A stretch of 64,000 bases of DNA, taken from the NCBI GenBank assembly GCA_046566045.1, contig JBKHXL010000014.1, positions 4,917 through 68,916 of the forward strand. Reading direction: 5' to 3'. The notes below the pieces were generated by a model. That model made no database searches. It saw only the letters and a program-made list of their open reading frames with translations, and had not been told where the DNA came from. The position numbers were made by a program, and so were the translations under genes. Positions 2,860-36,213 of the stretch are shown one piece after another (positions within the stretch are counted from its first letter, which is position 1; each line of letters starts with the position of its first letter). The DNA is from Candidatus Limnocylindria bacterium (GTDB lineage: Bacteria; Chloroflexota; Limnocylindria; Limnocylindrales; CSP1-4).

Positions 2860-3975
2860 CTACTCGACCGTGACGCCGGTCCAGGACGTGGTCCCGAGCA
2901 GGACCCACGAGCCGGACACCTGGCCCTTGGCCTCGACGAGGTAGTGGTAGGTCACCCCGACCTCCACGTCGTCGTCCACGAAGGCCGTCGTCCCGGCGTC
3001 CTCGATCTCGGCGCGCAGGCTGGCCGAACCGTCCACCTTGCGCAGGATCCGGTAGTGGCTGAAGCCCTCGCTGCCGAACGGCTCCCAGGCGACGGTCACG
3101 ACGCCGGCCTCGGAGCCCGCCTCGATCCACATGGCGTACGGCGTGGGCGCCGGCGTCTTCGTCGGCGCGGGCTCGTCCGGCGCCTCGAGCGACTTCGTGG
3201 CGGTCGCCGCCAGGACCTTGTAGCCGTCGTCCGTGCCGCGCACGCAGAACACGCGATACCAGGCGGTCGTGCCGGCGGGGGCGTGCTCGTCCCAGGCCTT
3301 GGTCGCCCCGCCCACCTCGGTCACGGCCACGACCTCGTCGCCGCCGCCGGTCGGCCACGACACGGTCTTGTCCGTCGAGCGCACGACCTTGTAGTAGTCG
3401 CCGCCGTCCGCCGGGCAACCGCTCCAGTCGATGAACACGGCGCCTTCCTTGTTGGCGAGGGTCAGGCTCATGACCGGCTTCTCGGTCGGCTTGGCGGTGG
3501 GCTTGGGGGTGGCGTCCGGCTTCTCGGTCGGCTTGGCGGTCGGCTTGGGGGTGGCGTCCGGCTTCTCGGTCGGCGTGGCGGTCGGCTTGGGCGTCGCGTC
3601 CGGCTCCTCGTCCGTCTCTGCCGGCTTCGCGGTGGGCGCGGTGGTGGGCGTCTTGGTCGGATCGGCAACCGAGGTCGGCTCGGCCTTCGCCGTCTCGTCT
3701 GCCACGTCGCTGGCGTCCGGCGCTTCGAAAGCGACGAAGGTCGGTGTCGGCTCGGCGTCGCCCTGGCTGCCGGCGAGGCCAAGATTCGCCCCGAGGGCGA
3801 TCGCGCCCATGAGCAGCGCGCCACCGATGGCGCCCGGCACGGACAGCCCAAGGCGTGGCGCCGGTCGCGGCGCGCGCGGCCGCGGGCCCGTCCGCTCGGT
3901 CAGCGGCTGCGTCCAATCGAAGCCATCGGCGCCCGCGCCGTCGAGCTCGTCCATGTCGTCCGGTTCGTATCCCAT
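2860..3975 (-). CDS. Membrane-anchored protein with a Pro/Thr/Lys-rich tandem-repeat linker and two FN3-like domains; paralog of the anti-sigma sensor domain
   Basis: TM helix (LGLSVPGAIGGALLMGAIALGANLGLAG). A 14-aa repeat (ATPKPTAKPTEKPD) occurs three times. The two C-terminal domains show the same W/C/Y pattern as the anti-sigma C-terminus. It sits 94 bp upstream of the sigma gene on the same strand. Confidence 0.75.
   Translation of the reverse strand: MGYEPDDMDELDGAGADGFDWTQPLTERTGPRPRAPRPAPRLGLSVPGAIGGALLMGAIALGANLGLAGSQGDAEPTPTFVAFEAPDASDVADETAKAEPTSVADPTKTPTTAPTAKPAETDEEPDATPKPTATPTEKPDATPKPTAKPTEKPDATPKPTAKPTEKPVMSLTLANKEGAVFIDWSGCPADGGDYYKVVRSTDKTVSWPTGGGDEVVAVTEVGGATKAWDEHAPAGTTAWYRVFCVRGTDDGYKVLAATATKSLEAPDEPAPTKTPAPTPYAMWIEAGSEAGVVTVAWEPFGSEGFSHYRILRKVDGSASLRAEIEDAGTTAFVDDDVEVGVTYHYLVEAKGQVSGSWVLLGTTSWTGVTVE
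3480..3615 (-). repeat. Three tandem copies of a ~42-bp in-frame repeat encoding (A/E)TPKPT(A/T)(K/T)PTEKPD
   Basis: The DNA shows ctcggtcggcttggcggt(g/c)ggcttggg(g/c)gtggcgtccggctt three times. Its translation on the minus strand is the repeated linker. Confidence 0.8.
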
Positions 3976-4205
3976 GGTCAGTCCCTCCCGAGACCTGTGT
4001 GTCGGCCGCCGGATGGATGACGGTGGCGGCCGGATGATTCCGACCCCTCCACAACGTCCGAGGGCGCGGATCCCTTACCGCGGCGCGACCATCCGATGGT
4101 CCGGGCTACACGCTGGGACCCCCGGCCCATCCACGGGAGCAGACCGGGCGAAGGGGAGACATCAGCCCTTCCGAACGACGGCCACCTGCCAGGAGACGCA
4201 CGACC

Positions 4206-28424: not shown

Positions 28425-30631
28425 CCGAGCCCGCCGCGGGACCCGTCGGGCGGATGGTCCTCGACGGGCGGCCGACCGGTTTCGAGCCGGGCGACTCGGT
28501 GGCCGTGGCGATCGTGCGCGCCGGGGAGTCGCCCGGCCGCGGCGGCACGCTGTGCCTCGCCGGCGACTGCGGCAACTGCCTCGGCGTCGTCGACGGCGTG
28601 GCCTACGTGCGGACCTGCCAGGTGCCGGCCCGCCCCGGCCTGCGGGTCGAACGGCATCCGGGGAGCGGCAACCCGCCGCTCCCCGTGGTGGACGCCGGGA
28701 ACCCGGTCGTGGCGCCGCTCGGCCGCGACATCCCGGTCCGCCGCGCCACCGTCGAGACGGTCATCGTCGGTGGCGGCGAGGCCGGCCGGCGGGCCGCGGC
28801 CGAGCATCCCGCCGCCCTCCGGCTCGATGCGGCGGAGGGCGACGAGGTCGTCGCCGTGTACCCGGGCCCGACCGTCGTGGCGCGCACGCCCGCCGGGATG
28901 CTGCACGTGGAGACGGACGACATCATCGTCGCCACCGGCGCCGCCGAGATCCAGCCGGCCTGCCCCGGCAACGACCTCGACGGCCTGCTCACCCCGCGCG
29001 CCGCGGCGACGCTCCGGGCCGCGGGGGTCGCCCTGCCCGAGCCGATCGTGACCGTGGGCCCGGAGCTGACCCGGCTCGAGGGCGACGCGGGCGGGCGGGT
29101 CCGGTCGGTCGTCACCCGGGGACCGGACGGCAACGAGACGACGACCCCGGCACGGACCGTGATCGTCGATCTCGGCCTGGCGCCACGCGACCTGCTGGCG
29201 CGCATGGCCGCCCCCGGCACCGCGGTGACCGCGGTCGGCGCGGCGGCCGAGGCCCAGCCGCTCCCAGCGGCCCCGTCCGATCCCGCGGCCGTCGTGTGTC
29301 GCTGCATGGACGTCACGGTCGCCGATCTCGACGAGGCGTGGGCGAAGGGCTTCACCGAGCTCGAGCTCCTCAAGCGTGCGACGCTCGCCGGGATCGGGAC
29401 GTGCCAGGGTGGTGCCTGCCTGCCCCACGTCCGGGCCTGGATCGCGGCGCGGACCGGCGAGGTGCCGGATCCGTTCACGGCGCGGCCGGCGTCCCGCCAG
29501 ATCACCCTCGCCGAGGCCGCCGCGGATACCACGGTGGACGCCTTCCGGCGGACCCCGCTGCACGACGAGCACCTGGCCCTCGGCGCCCGGATGGACCGCT
29601 TCGGCTCGTGGTGGCGGCCGTGGCACTACGGCGACGCCGTGGCGGAATACTGGGCGGTCCGGACCGGGGTCTCGATCGGCGACGTGAGCACCCTCGGCAA
29701 GCTCGTGGTCAGCGGACCGGACGCGGTCGAGGCGCTCGAGCGGCTGTATCCGTGCCACGTCGCGGACATCAGGGTCGGCCGCTCGCGCTACGCCCTCCTG
29801 CTCGACGAGCGGGGCCACGTCCTGGACGACGGCATGATCCTGCGCGACGGGGAGACGCGCTTCACGCTGTCGTTCACGTCGGGCGGTGCGTCCAACGCCG
29901 AGATGTGGGTGCGCGACTGGGTCGACGAGTGGGGCCTGCGCGTGCACGTGATGGACCGGACGATGTCGCTCGGCGCGATCAACGTCACGGGGCCGCTCGC
30001 CGGGGAGCTGCTCGGCCGCCTCGGCCTGCCGGAGCCGCCGCGCTTCCTCGGGCATGTCCGGGCCGAGATCGCGGGCGTGCCCTGTCACGTCATGCGCCTG
30101 TCATTCACCGGCGAGGCCGCGCTCGAGCTGCACCACCCGATCGACCGCTCGGTCGAGCTGTGGCGGGCGCTCCTGGACGCCGGGCGGGACCTGGGCATCC
30201 GACCACACGGCCTGCAGGCCCTGTTCGGGCTACGCCTCGAGAAGGGCCACGTCATCGTCGGCATGGACACCGAGCTCGATACCACGCCCCATCGGCTGGG
30301 CATGGACTGGGCGGTACGCATGGACAAGCCGCGGTTCATCGGTCGCGGCGCCCTCGCCCGCGTGGCGACGCTGCCCGACGAGCGCCGCTGGGTCGGGTTC
30401 ACGATGGACGGCCCGGCGCCGGTCGAGGGCACGCCGATCCTCGACGTCGATGGCCGCGAGGTCATCGGCAACGTGACGGGGAGCTGGCACTCCCCGCTGC
30501 TGGGCAGGGCCCTGATGCTCGGCTGGCAACGGCGCCCGCCGCACCCGGAGCGTGTCCGCATCGACGGGCGCGAGGCGGTCGTGACCGCCACGCCGTTCTA
30601 CGACCCGGAGGGCCACCGTGCCCGGGCGTGA
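28421..30631 (+). CDS. soxA: Sarcosine oxidase alpha subunit (heterotetrameric SoxA-type)
   Basis: 736 aa: N-terminal 2Fe-2S-like Cys cluster (CLAGDCGNC), NAD/FAD-binding fold, and C-terminal GcvT domain. GTGA overlap with the upstream gene. The 1513-aa track ORF is an in-frame read-through artefact. Confidence 0.85.
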   Translation: MTEPAAGPVGRMVLDGRPTGFEPGDSVAVAIVRAGESPGRGGTLCLAGDCGNCLGVVDGVAYVRTCQVPARPGLRVERHPGSGNPPLPVVDAGNPVVAPLGRDIPVRRATVETVIVGGGEAGRRAAAEHPAALRLDAAEGDEVVAVYPGPTVVARTPAGMLHVETDDIIVATGAAEIQPACPGNDLDGLLTPRAAATLRAAGVALPEPIVTVGPELTRLEGDAGGRVRSVVTRGPDGNETTTPARTVIVDLGLAPRDLLARMAAPGTAVTAVGAAAEAQPLPAAPSDPAAVVCRCMDVTVADLDEAWAKGFTELELLKRATLAGIGTCQGGACLPHVRAWIAARTGEVPDPFTARPASRQITLAEAAADTTVDAFRRTPLHDEHLALGARMDRFGSWWRPWHYGDAVAEYWAVRTGVSIGDVSTLGKLVVSGPDAVEALERLYPCHVADIRVGRSRYALLLDERGHVLDDGMILRDGETRFTLSFTSGGASNAEMWVRDWVDEWGLRVHVMDRTMSLGAINVTGPLAGELLGRLGLPEPPRFLGHVRAEIAGVPCHVMRLSFTGEAALELHHPIDRSVELWRALLDAGRDLGIRPHGLQALFGLRLEKGHVIVGMDTELDTTPHRLGMDWAVRMDKPRFIGRGALARVATLPDERRWVGFTMDGPAPVEGTPILDVDGREVIGNVTGSWHSPLLGRALMLGWQRRPPHPERVRIDGREAVVTATPFYDPEGHRARA

Positions 30632-30998
30632 GCGGATGCCCGGCGTGCGGGTGGTGGCCGAGCCGGCCGCCCTCGATGGCGCGCGCTGGGCCGGCGATGG
30701 GGTCATCGTCCTGCGGACCGCTCCGGACGAGGCGCTGGCCCTGGGCGCGACCGGTGTCGAGGTCGCCGATCCGCACGCCATCGTCGAGGCCGACGCCGGC
30801 TTCGTCGGCGGGCCCGTGGATCTCGAGCGGGTCATGGCCCATGTCGAGTGGGGGCTGCCCGCCGAGCGCCCGGCCCTCGCCCAGGGTTCGATCGCGGGCG
30901 TGCCGGCGAAGCTGTGGCTGACCGATGCGGGCGCGCTCCTGGTCGTCCAGGCGGCCTGGGCCGACGAGCTCGCCGAGCGGATCGGGTGGCGGGCATGA
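30618..30998 (+). CDS. soxG: Sarcosine oxidase gamma subunit
   Basis: About 120 aa, small subunit, in the position and size expected of SoxG. Start is GTG 30618 or ATG 30636. Confidence 0.6.
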   Translation: MPGRERMPGVRVVAEPAALDGARWAGDGVIVLRTAPDEALALGATGVEVADPHAIVEADAGFVGGPVDLERVMAHVEWGLPAERPALAQGSIAGVPAKLWLTDAGALLVVQAAWADELAERIGWRA

Positions 30999-32215
30999 GC
31001 GACTACACCCGGACCCTGCTTCCGATCCGCTGGCCCGACGGGCCGCCCAAGCGCAGATACGACGTGGTCATCATCGGCGGCGGCGGCCACGGGCTGTCCA
31101 CCGCCTACCACCTCGCGACTCGCCACGGGATCACCAACGTGGCGGTCATCGAGGCCGACTACATCGCCAGCGGCAACACGGGCCGGAACACGACCATCAT
31201 CCGGGCCAACTACGGCATCCCGGAGGCGGTCCGCTTCTACCAGCACTCCCTCGAGAAGTACCAGGAGCTGGAACAGGAGACCGGCGCCGCGATCCTGCAC
31301 CAGACCAAGGGCGTCATCTGGCTCGCCCATACCGAGATGGCGATGCGCACCGAGCGCGCCCGGTGCGTGCTGAACCAGGCCGTCGGCGCGGAGACCATGA
31401 TGCGGACGCCGGCCGAGCTCAAGGCCCTCATCCCGCAGCTGGACCTGACCGGTGGCGGCCGCTATCCGGTGCTCGGCGGCTCGCACCACGTCCAGGGGGC
31501 GACCGCCCGCCACGATCGGGTCGCCTGGGCCTACGCCAGCATCGCGTCGCAACGTGGGGTGGACATCTTCCAGCACACCGCGGTCACGGCGATCCGGCGC
31601 GACCGTGACGGCGGGCGGGTCATCGGGGTGGATACGACGGCCGGCCCGATCGACGCCGGCGCGGTCCTGTCGGCGGCCGGTGGGCGCGTGACCCAGGTCG
31701 CGGCGATGGCCGGCCTGCGCCTGCCGGTGCGGACCCATCCGCTGCACGCCTTCGTGACCAACGACTACGCCCTGGGATTCCCCGCCGTCCTGGCCAGCAC
31801 CGAGCTCGCCTGCTACGTGTCCCAGACCGATCGCGGCCAGATGCTCATCGGCGCCGAGTTCGACAGTCAGCCCTCGTACTCGCGCCAGTCGTCGTACAGC
31901 GCCCTGCGCTCGTACAGTTACAAGATCACGCGCCTGCTGCCGTTCCTGCGCGACATGCGCATCCTGCGCACGTGGGCGGGCATCTGCGACATCTCGGTCG
32001 ATTTCTCGCCGATCATGAGCGCCACCGGCATCGACGGCTTCTACGTCACGACCGGCTGGGGCACCTGGGGCTTCAAGGCCATCCCGGCCGGCGGGGAGGG
32101 CATGGCCGAGCTCATCGCCACGGGTCGGCCACCGGCCCTCATCGCGCCATTCACCCTCGAGCGCTTCCGGCGCGACCACGCGCTGGCCGACGCCGGGTCG
32201 ACGGGAACGCGCTGA
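30995..32215 (+). CDS. soxB: Sarcosine oxidase beta subunit
   Basis: 406 aa, DAO-family flavoprotein (YDVVIIGGGGHGLSTAYHLA; covalent-FAD His context HGxS). ATGA overlap with soxG. Confidence 0.9.
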   Translation: MSDYTRTLLPIRWPDGPPKRRYDVVIIGGGGHGLSTAYHLATRHGITNVAVIEADYIASGNTGRNTTIIRANYGIPEAVRFYQHSLEKYQELEQETGAAILHQTKGVIWLAHTEMAMRTERARCVLNQAVGAETMMRTPAELKALIPQLDLTGGGRYPVLGGSHHVQGATARHDRVAWAYASIASQRGVDIFQHTAVTAIRRDRDGGRVIGVDTTAGPIDAGAVLSAAGGRVTQVAAMAGLRLPVRTHPLHAFVTNDYALGFPAVLASTELACYVSQTDRGQMLIGAEFDSQPSYSRQSSYSALRSYSYKITRLLPFLRDMRILRTWAGICDISVDFSPIMSATGIDGFYVTTGWGTWGFKAIPAGGEGMAELIATGRPPALIAPFTLERFRRDHALADAGSTGTR

Positions 32216-32228
32216 TGGGCGGCCGCTG

Positions 32229-32471
32229 ATGCACCACCTCGACTGCCCGCGCTGCGGCCGCCGGCCGCTGGAGGAGTTCACCTTCGGCGGCGAGCGTCGC
32301 CCGGTGCCCGACACCATCACCGACCCGGACGAGCGTGACTTCGACGAGGTCTGGATCCTCGAGAACCCGGACGGTGAGACGACCGAGCGCTGGTTCCACG
32401 GTCACGGCTGCCGGCGCTGGCTGACCGTCCGGCGCGACACGTCGATCGACCGCGTGCTGGAGGTGCGCTGA
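32229..32471 (+). CDS. soxD: Sarcosine oxidase delta subunit
   Basis: 80 aa with a Zn-ribbon-like pattern (CPRCG ... HGHGCRRW), typical of SoxD. Confidence 0.8.
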   Translation: MHHLDCPRCGRRPLEEFTFGGERRPVPDTITDPDERDFDEVWILENPDGETTERWFHGHGCRRWLTVRRDTSIDRVLEVR

Positions 32472-32472
32472 G

Positions 32473-33669
32473 GTGCCCGCGCTCGCGGATCGGGCCTGGG
32501 AGCACGAGTTGCGCGGTCGCATCCGCTTCGGGGTCGGCGCGGTCGAGGCGCTGCCCGAGCTGATCTCGGCGGCGGACCCGGCCGGGGGCCGGCGGGCGTT
32601 CATCGTCACCGACCCCGGGGTCCTGGCCTCGGGCGTCATCGAGCGCGTGCGCGGCGTGCTCGCCGGCGGCGGCATCGAGACGGGTGTGTATGCCGCGGTG
32701 GAACCGAACCCGGGCACGAGCTCGATCCTGCGCGGGTCGGCGGCGCTGACCGCGTTCGGGGTGCCGCAGACGGTCATCCTGCCGGTCGGCGGGGGCTCGT
32801 CGATGGACAGCGCCAAGGTCATCTCGCTCCACGCCGCGAACGGCGGCGGCGTCCTGGAGCTCGGCTATCACCGCGACGACATCGTGCCGGGCGGTCCGGT
32901 CATCGCCGTCCCGACGACCGCCGGGACCGGGGCCGAGACCAACACCTACGGGGTCATCACCGACGAGGCGGCCGGGCGCAAGGGGTACGTCGGGCACCCG
33001 TCCGTGCTGCCGGTCTGGTCCGTGCTGGATCCGGCGCTCACCGTGGGACTCCCGCCGCGCGCGACCGCCGCGACCGGGGTGGACGCGATGACCCACTCGC
33101 TCGAGTCGCTGCTGTCCCGCAACCCGAACCCGTTCGCCGAGGGCATCGCCCTGCAGGTCATCCGCACCGTCCGTGCGTGGCTGCCGCGGGCCGTCGCCGA
33201 CGGCTCGGACCTGGAGGCGCGCAGCCAGCTGCTGATGGCCTCGCACCTGGCCGGGATCGGCCAGCAGAGCGGGACCGGGGTGGGCCTGGTCCACGCGCTC
33301 GGACACGCGATCGGGACGCGCGGGCGGCTCCCCCACGGGCTGGCGCTCGCGGTCGTCATGCCCGAGGTCATGGCCTTCTACGCCGACGATCATGGGTCGC
33401 GGGATCGGGAGCTGGCGCTCGTCGGGGTCGCACTCGGCGCGGCCTCACCGACCGAGGACCCGGCGACCGGCGCGGTGGCCGCCATCGGCGCGATGCGCAC
33501 GTTCCTGTCGTCGGTCGGCCTGCGGCCGTCCCTCCGCTCGCTCGGCTTCGACGACGCGCTGCTCGACGTGGTCGCCCAGGACGCCATCGACGACGCCGCG
33601 ATCGACAACTCCCCGCGGCTGCCGACGTTCGACCAGGCGCGCGCGATCCTGGGCTCTGTCCTGGGCTGA
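32473..33669 (+). CDS. Iron-containing (group III) alcohol dehydrogenase
   Basis: 398 aa. Fe-ADH motifs are present: GGGSSMDSAKV, and the His cluster HAL/GHAIG. Confidence 0.85.
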   Translation: MPALADRAWEHELRGRIRFGVGAVEALPELISAADPAGGRRAFIVTDPGVLASGVIERVRGVLAGGGIETGVYAAVEPNPGTSSILRGSAALTAFGVPQTVILPVGGGSSMDSAKVISLHAANGGGVLELGYHRDDIVPGGPVIAVPTTAGTGAETNTYGVITDEAAGRKGYVGHPSVLPVWSVLDPALTVGLPPRATAATGVDAMTHSLESLLSRNPNPFAEGIALQVIRTVRAWLPRAVADGSDLEARSQLLMASHLAGIGQQSGTGVGLVHALGHAIGTRGRLPHGLALAVVMPEVMAFYADDHGSRDRELALVGVALGAASPTEDPATGAVAAIGAMRTFLSSVGLRPSLRSLGFDDALLDVVAQDAIDDAAIDNSPRLPTFDQARAILGSVLG

Positions 33670-33689
33670 CGGCCACCCGCGGCGGTCCG

Positions 33690-34030
33690 CGCCCGGCCCG
33701 TCCGCCCCGGCCCGTCCGTCGGACCTGCCCGGCGTGGCCCGGCCCGGCGTGGCCCGGCCCGTGCGCCGCGGCCTCGCCCCGGCCCGGCCTCGCCCCATCC
33801 GGCCACGCCCCATCCGGCCCGGCCGTCCGCCCCGGCCCGTCCGCCCCGGCCCGTCCGGCCCCGGCCCGTCCGGCCACGCCCCGTCCGACCTGGCCCGTCC
33901 GCCCCGGCCCGCACGTCGCCTCGACCGCCGTGGCCCGCCCCGGCCCGGCCTCGCCCCATCCGGCCACGCCCCGTCCGGCCCGGCCGTCCGCCCCGGTCCG
34001 TCCCGTCCACCCCCGGTCCGCCACTCCGCC
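33690..34030. repeat. C-rich low-complexity degenerate tandem repeats (cggcccgtccg(c/g)cccgg units); G-rich, G4-capable on the minus strand
   Basis: About 340 bp of direct repeats built from the cccgtcc / ccggccc motif. They translate in a shadow frame to PGPSGHAPS runs. No coding signal. Confidence 0.7.
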
Positions 34031-34175
34031 GTGCTTCAGAGGCTGCAGATCGACCTCGAAGGCCGACCATGGCACACCCTCGGCCTGGATCCGTGCCTGT
34101 GAGGCCCGTTCGGGCGTCGAGGCGCACCGGCCCGGAGGCTACAGGGCCTGGCTGCAGTCTCTGAAGCACGCACGA

Positions 34176-34375
34176 TCGTCGCGCGGCCCTCGATGGGCCT
34201 GCGGCGGCCATCGGCGGGGTGGACGGCACCGGCCCGGGGACGGGACGCGGCCTCAGCCTGGGACGATCGTCGCGCGGCCCTCGATGGGCCTTGCGGCGAC
34301 CATCGGCGCGGTGGACGGCACCGGCCCGGGGACGGGACGCGGCCTCAGCCTGGGACGATCGTCGCGCGGGCCTCC
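34176..34375. repeat. About 88-bp direct tandem repeat, 2.2 copies, preceded by a 17-bp inverted-repeat pair (34031-34047 and 34151-34167)
   Basis: Copy 1 at 34176-34263 and copy 2 at 34264-34351 are about 92% identical, with a partial third copy. The inverted pair tgcttcagaggctgcag / ctgcagtctctgaagca brackets about 100 bp. Confidence 0.7.
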
Positions 34376-34658
34376 GGGCGCGACCCACGGATGGCGCGCG
34401 GGATCTCGGCCACGCGTTCGACCTCGGCCATGATCGCGCGGTGAGGCCTCCGGGGCCGGGCGATCGCGCGGCGAGGCTCGCGGGCCGCAGCCGGACGAGG
34501 CGGCCTCACGGCTGGCCCCGCCTGGATCCCAGACCGTCGCCGCCGGCCGCAGCCGGTCGATCGACGACGACGATGGCCGCCGCGCCGTGCCCGCGGGTGG
34601 TCGGCGCGGCGCCCGGCCTGACGCCCAAGGTCCGCCGCCGCCGGCCTGGCGACGTCGC

Positions 34659-35609
34659 CTACCCCGCGTCGACGAGCGACTTGACCTCGCCGATGAAGCG
34701 CTCCATGGTCTCGACGTCGTACGGCGCCGGCTGCTCGGACAGGACGGTCGTGAACCCGAGCTCGACGTAGGGTCGGAGCCGGTCCGCGATCTCCATCGGT
34801 GAACCCTCCCAGAAGGTGTCGTCGTCCTCGATGTCGGTGAGCGGGGTCCGGTTGCGGGCCATCGCCGCGTCGCGGACGCGACGCGCCTCAGCCCGGTCGT
34901 CGCGGATGGTCAGCTTCACCCCGAGGGTGAACTCGATCTCCGAGATGTCGCGGCCGACGATCGCGCAATGCTCCCTGAGCACCTCGACCTTGCGGGCCAT
35001 CACCTCCACCGGCCCCATCGCGTTCCACATGTCCGCGTACATGGCGACCGTACGCAGCGTCTTCTTCTCGCCGCTCCCCCCGATCATGATCGGCAGGCGC
35101 GGCTGGAGCGGCAGCGGGCTGTGGCGCAGGTCGTCGAACGCGTAGCGACCACCAGGCGGTGAGGTGACCGCCCGGCCATCGAGCAGGGCCCGCATCGCGG
35201 CGACCGACTCGTGCATCCAGTCCAGGCGCTGGCCGAAGCCGCTCCCGAACTCGATGCCGTGCGCCGTGTGCTCAGGCTCCATCCAGGCCCCTCCGATGCC
35301 GAGGATGGCCCGACCGCCGCTGATGTGATCGAGGGTGGCGGCCGACTTGGCCATCAGGCCCGGATTGCGGAACGTGTTGGCCCCGACGAGCAGGCCGAGG
35401 CGCGTCCGCTCGGTCGCCATGGCCCACGCGGCCAGGGTCGTCCAGCCCTCGACGATCGGCTGGTACGGGTCGCCGAAGATGGCGTACAGGTGGTCCCAGG
35501 TCCAGAGCGTGTCGTAGCCGAGGCGATCGACGCGCGTCGCAGCATCGAGCATCTCCGGCCAGGTCGCCGCCTGGCTCCAGAGCAGCAGGCCGGTCTTGAG
35601 GTCGGTCAT
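34659..35609 (-). CDS. LLM-class (luciferase-like monooxygenase) flavin/F420-dependent oxidoreductase
   Basis: 316 aa from ATG 35609, TIM-barrel LLM sequence (WTWDHLYAIFGDPYQPIVEGWTTLAAWAMATERTRLGLLV). The track ORF's N-terminal SRPVP extension is the translated microsatellite and is rejected. Confidence 0.8.
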   Translation of the reverse strand: MTDLKTGLLLWSQAATWPEMLDAATRVDRLGYDTLWTWDHLYAIFGDPYQPIVEGWTTLAAWAMATERTRLGLLVGANTFRNPGLMAKSAATLDHISGGRAILGIGGAWMEPEHTAHGIEFGSGFGQRLDWMHESVAAMRALLDGRAVTSPPGGRYAFDDLRHSPLPLQPRLPIMIGGSGEKKTLRTVAMYADMWNAMGPVEVMARKVEVLREHCAIVGRDISEIEFTLGVKLTIRDDRAEARRVRDAAMARNRTPLTDIEDDDTFWEGSPMEIADRLRPYVELGFTTVLSEQPAPYDVETMERFIGEVKSLVDAG

Positions 35610-35627
35610 GGGGTCGCGCAAGCCTCC

Positions 35628-35738
35628 AGGGACGGGACGGGGACGGGACGGGGACGAGGACGGGACGGGACGGGACGGGGACGGGACGGGGACGGGACGG
35701 GACGGGACGGGACGGGACGGGACGGGTCGGGACGGGTC
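35628..35738 (+). repeat. (GGGAC)/(GGGGAC)n microsatellite, about 21 units, 19-130 bp upstream of the LLM gene start; canonical G-quadruplex motif on the plus strand
   Basis: The sequence reads gggacgggacggggacgggacggggacgaggacgggacgggacgggacggggacgggacgggg..., ending in gggtcgggacgggtcggg. It mixes 5- and 6-nt units. Confidence 0.85.
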
Positions 35739-35931
35739 GGGCTCCCAGTCTAGGCTCGATCCGTGCATGGCCGCGGCCATCGCGCATGCTGGTGGTGCGA
35801 CGTTCGCCAAGGAACTCGGGCCAGTCGCCACCGGTCAGGGGCACGCGGGAGACCAGGCACGCGAGAGGCCAGGCACGCGCGACACGGCGAGACGTGCCGC
35901 GCCACGGGCCGCCATCCGGCTTACGGCCCGC

Positions 35932-36213
35932 CTACGCTCGATCGAGCTCGCGGTCGATGGCGCGCAGGATGAAGCGCGCCGCCTCGGCCGACTTGCCGCC
36001 GAGCTTCGCGCCCTCGTCCTGCTCGAGCGCGCGCATGAGGTCGGCCAGGAACAGGTCCATCGACGCGGTCCGCTCGAGCGATCCGTCGGCGAACGCGGCC
36101 TCGAGGCGCGCCACGGCGGCCCGGGCGTTGTCCACCGTGTGGCCCTTGGCGCCGATCAGCTCGCGCACCTCCGCGCGCGCCCGGTCCGCGCCCGCGCCCG
36201 ACGACGGGCTCAC
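35932..36213 (-). CDS. Small hypothetical protein (93 aa), translationally coupled downstream of the GNAT gene
   Basis: GTG at 36213-36211 overlaps the GNAT stop (GTGA). The helical, charged sequence ...DLFLADLMRALEQDEGAKLGGKSAEAARFILRAIDRELDRA is coding-like. No family recognised. The longer 214-aa track ORF is rejected. Confidence 0.4.
   Translation of the reverse strand: MSPSSGAGADRARAEVRELIGAKGHTVDNARAAVARLEAAFADGSLERTASMDLFLADLMRALEQDEGAKLGGKSAEAARFILRAIDRELDRA

Follow-up and report, generated by a model that had tools for sequence, protein, structure and literature searches.

The MIRU-VNTR and ETR loci are intergenic VNTR or minisatellite loci of high-GC bacteria. In their mycobacterial form, they consist of head-to-tail repeats of tens of bases whose overall length differs between strains, and the MIRU units form a family scattered across numerous loci within a single genome. 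Phase-variable SSRs are known in Neisseria, Haemophilus, and Campylobacter, where contingency loci of this kind are made of short units (5 to 15 nt) in long runs that slip fast. A further group of small, intergenic, noncoding units carries terminal inverted repeats and includes MITEs and the REP/BIME, ERIC, Correia, and BOX elements. Literature searches returned nothing specific to repeats of Limnocylindria or to G-quadruplex microsatellites of bacteria. In this study, we describe a repeat-filled gap between two convergent genes whose closest known kind is the hypervariable intergenic VNTR/SSR locus, and of which it is a further example, from an uncultured lineage.

The gap lies within the 64-kb stretch of DNA that was analyzed as a whole (referred to below as the window). 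Its host is an uncultured, soil-type member of the Chloroflexota (Limnocylindria), a poorly studied lineage, and has a genomic GC content of 73%, which the codon signature of the flanking genes fits. The gap corresponds exactly to positions 33670 to 34658, that is, from the stop codon of the left gene (33669) to the stop codon of the right gene (34659). The left gene (32473 to 33669, plus strand) encodes an iron-containing alcohol dehydrogenase (Fe-ADH; Pfam PF00465 and PF25137, with E values of 1e-37 to 1e-39) and is the final gene of a sarcosine-oxidase-like cluster (SoxD/DAO/GCV_T). The right gene (34659 to 35609, minus strand) encodes an LLM-class flavin-dependent oxidoreductase (luciferase-like monooxygenase; PF00296) of 316 amino acids. 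We placed the true start of the LLM gene at the ATG at 35609 because its product was 100% identical to an NCBI protein of 316 amino acids encoded by a Candidatus Limnocylindria MAG and because most of its 120 best homologs also had 316 amino acids (the others had 313 to 320).

A previous inspection of the letters alone (the sequence-only reading) had described about 1 kb of noncoding, repeat-rich DNA between convergent genes, without apparent coding potential. Both parts of this description held: the boundaries proved exact, and the codon periodicity of the neighboring genes was absent from the gap. In the Fe-ADH and LLM genes, the GC content was approximately 0.95 at third codon positions and approximately 0.5 at second positions. 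This signature vanished from 33670 to about 34600, and the position-specific GC content across the gap was flat, at 0.7 to 0.9. With approximately 1,020 nt, the gap was the longest stretch of the 64 kb to lack codon periodicity, followed by one of 585 nt. Open reading frames, including long ones, covered it on both strands; their translations were rich in Arg, Pro, and Gly, as is typical of out-of-frame translation, and the main ones crossing the gap overlapped the 3' end of the Fe-ADH gene. None of the five longest had a match in Pfam. The repeats were spaced at 14, 15, 71, 90, 92, and 125 nt and kept no reading frame. We conclude that the gap is noncoding. A low-complexity gene for a Pro/Gly/Arg-rich protein, which was considered as a candidate, was rejected on the basis of the flat codon-position GC content and the frame-breaking repeat spacings.

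Five segments were delineated between the two stop codons. A proximal segment of 32 nt (33670 to 33701, plus strand), directly 3' of the Fe-ADH stop codon, had an ordinary predicted fold (z = -0.4) and was identical in two independent contigs of the same species (L153 and L154; see below). It runs into a C-rich, degenerate micro- or minisatellite array (33685 to 34013, plus strand) with units of approximately 5, 14 to 15, and approximately 90 nt. TRF reported this array at 33685 to 34003 with a period of 15, 21.3 copies, 73% matches, and 12% indels; it can also be read with a period of 5 or of about 90. The degenerate C-rich units noted earlier at 33690 to 34030 were thus confirmed, with limits of 33685 and 34013. 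Within the array, two 68-nt copies at 33775 and 33936 (97% identical) represent a higher-order duplication. The array consists of 57% C and 31% G (88% GC), and its minus strand contains four G-quadruplex motifs. The fold of its RNA was ordinary compared with shuffled sequences (z = +0.8).

The third segment is a hairpin of 141 nt (34030 to 34170; no strand assigned), with 19-nt arms at 34030 to 34048 and 34152 to 34170 that match at 18 of 19 positions and enclose an interior of 103 nt. The inverted repeat had been recognized previously as a 16/17 match at 34031 to 34047 and 34151 to 34167; the repeat itself stands, with the corrected 17-mers lying at 34032 to 34048 and 34152 to 34168 and extending to 19 nt. 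Two arms matching in this way were obtained from none of 100 shuffled sequences. Among the 25 longest inverted-repeat pairs listed for the window, this was the sole pair with at least 90% identity within 300 nt. The arms are less GC rich than their surroundings. The structure prediction that the sequence-only reading had suggested for this pair revealed exceptional stability: the plus-strand RNA folded at -85.8 kcal/mol (z = -4.6), and the DNA reached a z score of -4.95, compared with -2.9 for the minus-strand RNA. Of the gap pieces that were folded, only the hairpin folded better than its shuffled counterparts. Read as RNA, the single arm mismatch becomes a G.U pair on the plus strand and a C/A mismatch on the minus strand.

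The hairpin is followed by a tandem repeat (34172 to 34383, plus strand) for which TRF gave a period of 92 (91 to 92), 2.2 copies, and 96% matches at 34172 to 34374. The previous description of this segment as an 88-bp unit in 2.2 copies (34176 to 34375) was correct as to the tandem repeat and incorrect as to the period, 88 being the length of the ungapped matching block. Between the two full copies (34172 to 34262 and 34263 to 34354), there are two substitutions and a single indel of 1 nt. They are followed by a partial copy that matches clearly only over approximately its first 19 nt and is diverged beyond that point (76% identity in a 29-nt window). Folds of the 92-bp unit were ordinary (z = -0.8 and +0.7). 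Part of the hairpin interior (34080 to 34135) was marginally similar to the 92-bp unit, with a score that was reached by 7 of 300 shuffles, and the tandem array may formerly have extended into the hairpin interior. A larger design, in which the C-rich array would mirror the 92-bp array about the hairpin as one degenerate palindrome, was rejected (Smith-Waterman score of 36 versus 31.6 +/- 5.5 for shuffles). So was a CRISPR array, as the repeats of the gap are contiguous head-to-tail units without spacers.

The remaining 275 nt, next to the LLM stop codon (34384 to 34658; no strand assigned), form a unique GC-rich tail. It contains short direct repeats (23 nt at a spacing of 30 and 20 nt at a spacing of 62) and a stem-loop with 13-nt arms at 34575 to 34614, and its folds were ordinary compared with shuffles. 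No similarity to the tail was detected in the window, at the loci of relatives, among the proteins of neighboring genes, or in plasmids and phages.

The sequence-only reading had taken the region for a decayed mobile or repetitive element and had likened the inverted repeat to a MITE. A size of 141 nt and near-perfect terminal inverted repeats of 19 nt do fit a MITE, as does the short, noncoding nature of the unit, and the slot between the two genes is a rearrangement hot spot in relatives (see below). MITEs and the other small elements of this kind differ from the hairpin in that the latter was single copy in all the data searched and lacked a target-site duplication. Neither the C-rich array, nor the hairpin arms, nor the 92-bp unit had a second copy within the 64-kb window. 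An 18-nt arm query against 185,579 representative genomes matched 33 loci, all of them chance single arms in unrelated taxa with an extension of at most approximately 20 nt; one contig had two such arms, on the same strand and about 2 kb apart. In JGI metagenomes, the two-arm pattern retrieved only two unrelated low-GC palindromes. IMG/VR yielded only chance matches to single arms and none to the 92-bp and C-rich units, BLAST searches of plasmids and phages found no match to the repeats of the gap, and no copy of the 92-bp or C-rich units was present at the loci of relatives. The sequences flanking the hairpin (...CACTCCGC / arm ... arm / CACGATCG) contain no direct repeat, and no transposase or other mobility gene occurs in the neighborhood that is colinear with relatives. 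The copy-number check that had been proposed for the 17-bp termini and the repeat unit was carried out on the 64 kb of the source genome that form the window and on public data; it returned no second copy. Within this scope the interpretation as a mobile element found no support, and we regard it as quite improbable that the hairpin, perhaps together with the 92-bp units, represents a MITE or what is left of an inserted element. An origin by duplication of other window DNA was also rejected, as only short compositional matches were found.

The same searches separate the gap from MIRU loci: no second locus with its units was found in the window, at the loci of relatives, or in IMG/VR. In other respects, the gap resembles VNTR loci, which are noncoding and built from head-to-tail units of at least 10 nt. 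This description applies to the 15-nt units (21 copies, 73% matches) and to the 92-bp units (2.2 copies, 96% matches).

Comparison with relatives revealed that the slot between the Fe-ADH and LLM genes is variable. The window was colinear over 10 kb with three contigs (L034, L035, and L037) at 75 to 82% nucleotide identity, and the LLM gene was 82 to 87% identical in the relatives compared. Colinearity extended along the Fe-ADH gene as far as its own stop codon; similarity ended at the LLM stop codon (34660) and returned at that of the Fe-ADH gene (33675). Five contigs (L034 to L037 and L041) have in this slot a gene of the SIMPL family (PF04402), which includes proteins like Brucella BP26/Omp28 and Escherichia coli YggE. 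The gene encodes 241 to 243 amino acids and is on the strand of the LLM gene. In another contig (L156), the same two flanking genes are separated by only 40 bp, and in two others (L040 and L042), different genes lie downstream of the LLM gene. Given these three states of the slot among relatives, the junction is a rearrangement hot spot. Furthermore, most of the kilobase in the gap must be dispensable, because the relative with the shortest spacer manages with 40 bp.

The slot occupied by the SIMPL gene has the same position and a similar length (827 bp in L034 versus 984 to 989 bp here), with no nucleotide or protein similarity to the gap. Searches of the gap with SIMPL and the other neighbor proteins (tblastn and blastn) gave nothing above noise. 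A SIMPL pseudogene, or a remnant of the other genes that adjoin the LLM gene in relatives, was accordingly rejected, since there was no signal by tblastn, blastn, or Pfam; with zero similarity at both levels, the gap cannot be named a SIMPL pseudogene. Nor did the gap have any detectable sequence in common with the 40-bp spacer of L156. Neighbor-joining trees of the LLM and Fe-ADH genes were star-like and favored neither replacement of a SIMPL gene nor growth from a short spacer.

Short-read assemblies should break at repeats of this kind, and therefore the search for independent versions of the gap was started from the Fe-ADH side. Three independent Logan contigs were obtained: L153 (SRR28401803) and L154 (SRR33270658), with Fe-ADH genes 99.8% identical to that of the window at the nucleotide level, and L155 (ERR14788558), with 91.6% identity. 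All three pass from the Fe-ADH stop codon into repeats that are rich in C, after which they break off. L154 matches the window throughout the 50 nt that it extends past the stop codon. L153 shares the first 32 nt and then has an array of 190 bp, 170 bp shorter than the 360 bp of the window. The interior of this array (approximately 100 nt) has no 12-mer in common with the window. L153 then rejoins the window 46 nt before the hairpin and follows it through the entire left arm and for a further 9 nt, with one mismatch; the arm and these 9 nt are identical. L155 is C rich at the same place with a different sequence, and thus the repeat state is older than that split. Taken together, these comparisons indicate that the C-rich array is hypervariable within the species in both sequence and length, with stable edges and a stable left hairpin arm. 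Length polymorphism is a property of VNTR loci, and the C-rich array has it (360 bp versus 190 bp in L153). Unlike MIRU-VNTR and ETR loci, the array differs between strains in its sequence besides its copy number.

Artifacts had been named beforehand as an outcome that would undo the description of the locus. The contigs enter the array from the Fe-ADH gene, and an assembly artifact is therefore excluded for the left part of the gap, from 33670 to 34057, which is the part that independent contigs cover. From the LLM side, a query with the C-terminal 80 amino acids of the LLM protein found no same-species contig, with nothing above 85% identity. The window does derive from a MAG, in which repeats of extreme GC content are error prone, and the long open reading frames on both strands might be read as a gene. 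Nevertheless, the array was entered by three independent assemblies from other samples, one of which reaches the hairpin arm, the flanks are perfectly colinear with those of relatives, and the copies of the tandem repeat differ by substitutions; against the protein stand the features of the open reading frames and repeat spacings given above. An error of MAG assembly or sequencing, or a low-complexity Pro/Gly/Arg-rich protein, is therefore a highly improbable explanation of the gap.

The composition of the array raised the question of transcription termination. Rho acts preferentially on RNA that is rich in C and poor in G, and its classic activator is poly(C). Predictors such as RhoTermPredict describe a Rho-dependent terminator as a rut region with more C than G, upstream of a pause hairpin. 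The Fe-ADH strand of the gap resembles this arrangement, in that more than 300 nt of C-rich 3' sequence lead directly into a strong hairpin. Such a terminator needs roughly 80 nt; the array here is far longer and contains 31% G. The gap might accordingly be a module for Rho-dependent termination and insulation, in which the array would act like a rut site, the hairpin would serve as a pause site or roadblock for both transcripts, and selection would act on composition only. Several observations are consistent with this proposal. The ratio of C to G on the strand of the Fe-ADH transcript was 1.86 in the array of the window, 1.46 in L153, and 2.33 in L155 (with 25 to 35% G), so that C richness was kept in three versions of the array while the sequence was not. 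The array RNA was no more structured than shuffled sequences and is directly followed by the very stable hairpin. No intrinsic terminator (a GC-rich stem-loop with a T/U run) was detected in positions 33400 to 36100, leaving the gap without that consensus. However, the array is not G poor, and the expansion of C-rich units preserves composition without selection. The median C/G ratio over 22 noncoding 3' regions was 1.05; an excess of C thus does not characterize the 3' ends of this genome in general, and the ratio on the LLM side was just 0.92 to 1.2. Moreover, 40 bp suffices between the same genes in L156. We consider a Rho-dependent module unlikely, though it is the most interesting of the alternatives.

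A second array, (GGGAC)x21.6, lies upstream of the LLM gene (35629 to 35741, plus strand), on whose strand it reads (CCCGT)n. The plus strand of this array carries five G-quadruplex motifs, and the array stops beside a GGAGG motif, 19 nt short of the ATG of the LLM gene. Its orientation is opposite to that of the C-rich array, and the region upstream of the LLM gene had no similarity to the same region in relatives. Together, the two arrays contain 9 of the 24 canonical G-quadruplex motifs of the window, on opposite strands. The arrays that bracket the LLM gene (33685 to 34013 and 35629 to 35741) could be joint G-quadruplex/i-motif elements that would modulate the expression of the gene or replication, or would serve as recombination repeats, possibly in a phase-variable manner. 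This is suggested by the share of motifs in the two arrays, by the position of the (GGGAC)n array against the ribosome-binding site of the LLM gene, and by the length difference of the left array between strains. The likeness to SSR contingency loci also extends to the (GGGAC)n array, which abuts the ribosome-binding site, and to the short units and long runs of the C-rich array. The classic loci of this type are nevertheless unlike the pentamer arrays described here, which are 88% GC. The C-rich array lies between two 3' ends and therefore has no reading frame or promoter to switch, which leaves a change in its repeat number without an obvious target. The orientation of the LLM gene is the same as in relatives, there was no comparative signal, and motifs of this type are in any case abundant where the GC content of a genome is high. 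Joint action of the two arrays through non-B DNA is, in our assessment, improbable. The second array may be a coincidence in a slippage-prone genome, or it may reflect non-B-DNA or contingency behavior.

The stability of the hairpin also bears on the view, part of the sequence-only reading, that the region might be the locus of a structured regulatory RNA. A noncoding RNA gene, consisting of the hairpin with or without the repeats and transcribed from the gap, would be in line with the z score of -4.6 on the plus strand, the weaker fold on the minus strand, and the arm mismatch that is a G.U pair only in the plus-strand RNA. That pair is a single observation, however, and the DNA fold is equally exceptional. 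No match was found in Rfam 15 at an E value of 1 or less (positions 33000 to 35500, both strands), and no tRNA, tmRNA, or promoter-like site was found in the gap. A regulatory RNA is awkward here because the gap lies between two 3' ends. We therefore judge a transcribed noncoding RNA very unlikely.

A broader functional interpretation would combine several of these elements. In it, the hairpin and the inverted pair of C/G-rich arrays on either side of the LLM gene would form one module selected for its composition, in which self-renewing C-rich repeats would insulate or tune a single gene through Rho loading, G-quadruplex/i-motif formation, or both. The sequence could then change completely from strain to strain, with only the C richness and the hairpin being retained. 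Given the points raised above, such a composite module seems to us rather unlikely.

The reading that we favor, with a probability of roughly 0.6, is that the gap is a lineage-specific, noncoding, fast-evolving repeat spacer that was generated locally in a variable slot between convergent 3' ends. A local origin is indicated because no other copy was present in any of the data searched. According to this scenario, short C-rich units would have given rise to the micro- or minisatellite in place, through slipped-strand mispairing and unequal recombination, and a 92-bp segment would then have been duplicated in tandem in one or two rounds. The gap would have no sequence-specific function. At most, it would play a passive role as a long 3' untranslated or termination zone that separates the convergent transcripts, and the hairpin would then be the most probable barrier.

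Three observations weigh against a spacer that is filled with repeats and nothing else. L155 is also C rich, and the persistence of the repeat state across a roughly species-level divergence (91.6% nucleotide identity of Fe-ADH) could mean selection; deletion bias is usual in bacteria. The presence of two related C/G-rich arrays on either side of the LLM gene, with their large share of the G-quadruplex motifs of the window, exceeds what one would expect of a random scar. Finally, the left hairpin arm is conserved beside a scrambled array.

The best explanation for this eye-catching block of 1 kb is thus that slippage and duplication of an ordinary kind took place at a variable junction, rather than that it represents a mobile element, a gene, or any known RNA. 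For Limnocylindria, the gap represents a hypervariable locus whose interior is unrecognizable between strains with 99.8% identical Fe-ADH genes, and it could serve for strain typing. Such loci also break short-read assemblies, as is evident from the same-species contigs, all of which end in the array region. If selection for Rho loading or non-B DNA does underlie the conserved composition, this would be an unusual instance of a function maintained by repeat turnover.

Among Limnocylindria relatives that carry the luciferase-like monooxygenase gene (LLM; contigs L034, L037, L040, L041, L042, and L156), LLM is flanked on both sides by rearrangement hot spots. Upstream of LLM, the relatives have a gene of the FMN_bind_2 or MerR type, unknown ORFs (154 to 172 aa), or a non-coding stretch of 440 bp. 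On the downstream side, LLM is followed by the PF04402-family gene SIMPL, a 40-bp spacer, a cluster of ABC/OpuA transporter genes, or an LPG_synthase/GT2 pair.

In the window, the DNA upstream of LLM contains a pentanucleotide microsatellite, (GGGAC)x21.6, at positions 35629 to 35741; on the LLM strand, its sequence is (CCCGT)n. The LLM start codon lies 19 nt downstream of the array end, and a GGAGG motif adjoins the array. Five tandem G-quadruplex motifs are present on the plus strand of the microsatellite, the orientation of which is inverted relative to that of the C-rich array of the gap between LLM and the iron-containing alcohol dehydrogenase gene (Fe-ADH). If the longest ORF is taken, the microsatellite is erroneously translated as a PSRPV repeat. 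Farther upstream, the non-coding stretch that separates LLM from a conserved small ORF contains 2.5 copies of a 16-bp unit, GGCACGCGAGAGACCA (positions 35840 to 35879); the equivalent place in L037 (positions 1587 to 1680) holds unrelated tandem repeats of 21 to 22 bp. The small ORF itself (positions 35935 to 36159, minus strand) encodes a product that shares 81% identity, across 75 aa, with that of the 87-aa ORF kept upstream of LLM in all of the relatives examined, which has no Pfam family.

The two ends of the gap (positions 33670 to 33682 and 34591 to 34603) are complementary over 13 nt (12/13) at a spacing of 908 nt, probably by chance because the DNA is so GC-rich. Positions 30000 to 33669 hold a gene cluster that is closed by Fe-ADH and is colinear with the relatives' SoxD, DAO, and GCV_T (sarcosine-oxidase-like) genes. 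Elsewhere, a 42-bp unit (3.3 copies, 94%; positions 3474 to 3610) lies within a minus-strand ORF (positions 2860 to 4074) with strong codon periodicity and probably encodes a linker rich in Pro, Lys, and Thr.

Short-read contigs from the same species (L153 and L154) and from a sister lineage (L155) all end in the C-rich array (window positions 33685 to 34013) or just past the left hairpin arm (34030 to 34048); the stretches concerned are contig positions 1504 to 1722, 1433 to 1482, and 1303 to 1373, respectively. LLM, which has repeats on both flanks, was not recovered from the samples behind these three contigs. Together, the contig ends and the unrecovered LLM represent a case of metagenome assemblies fragmented by repeats.
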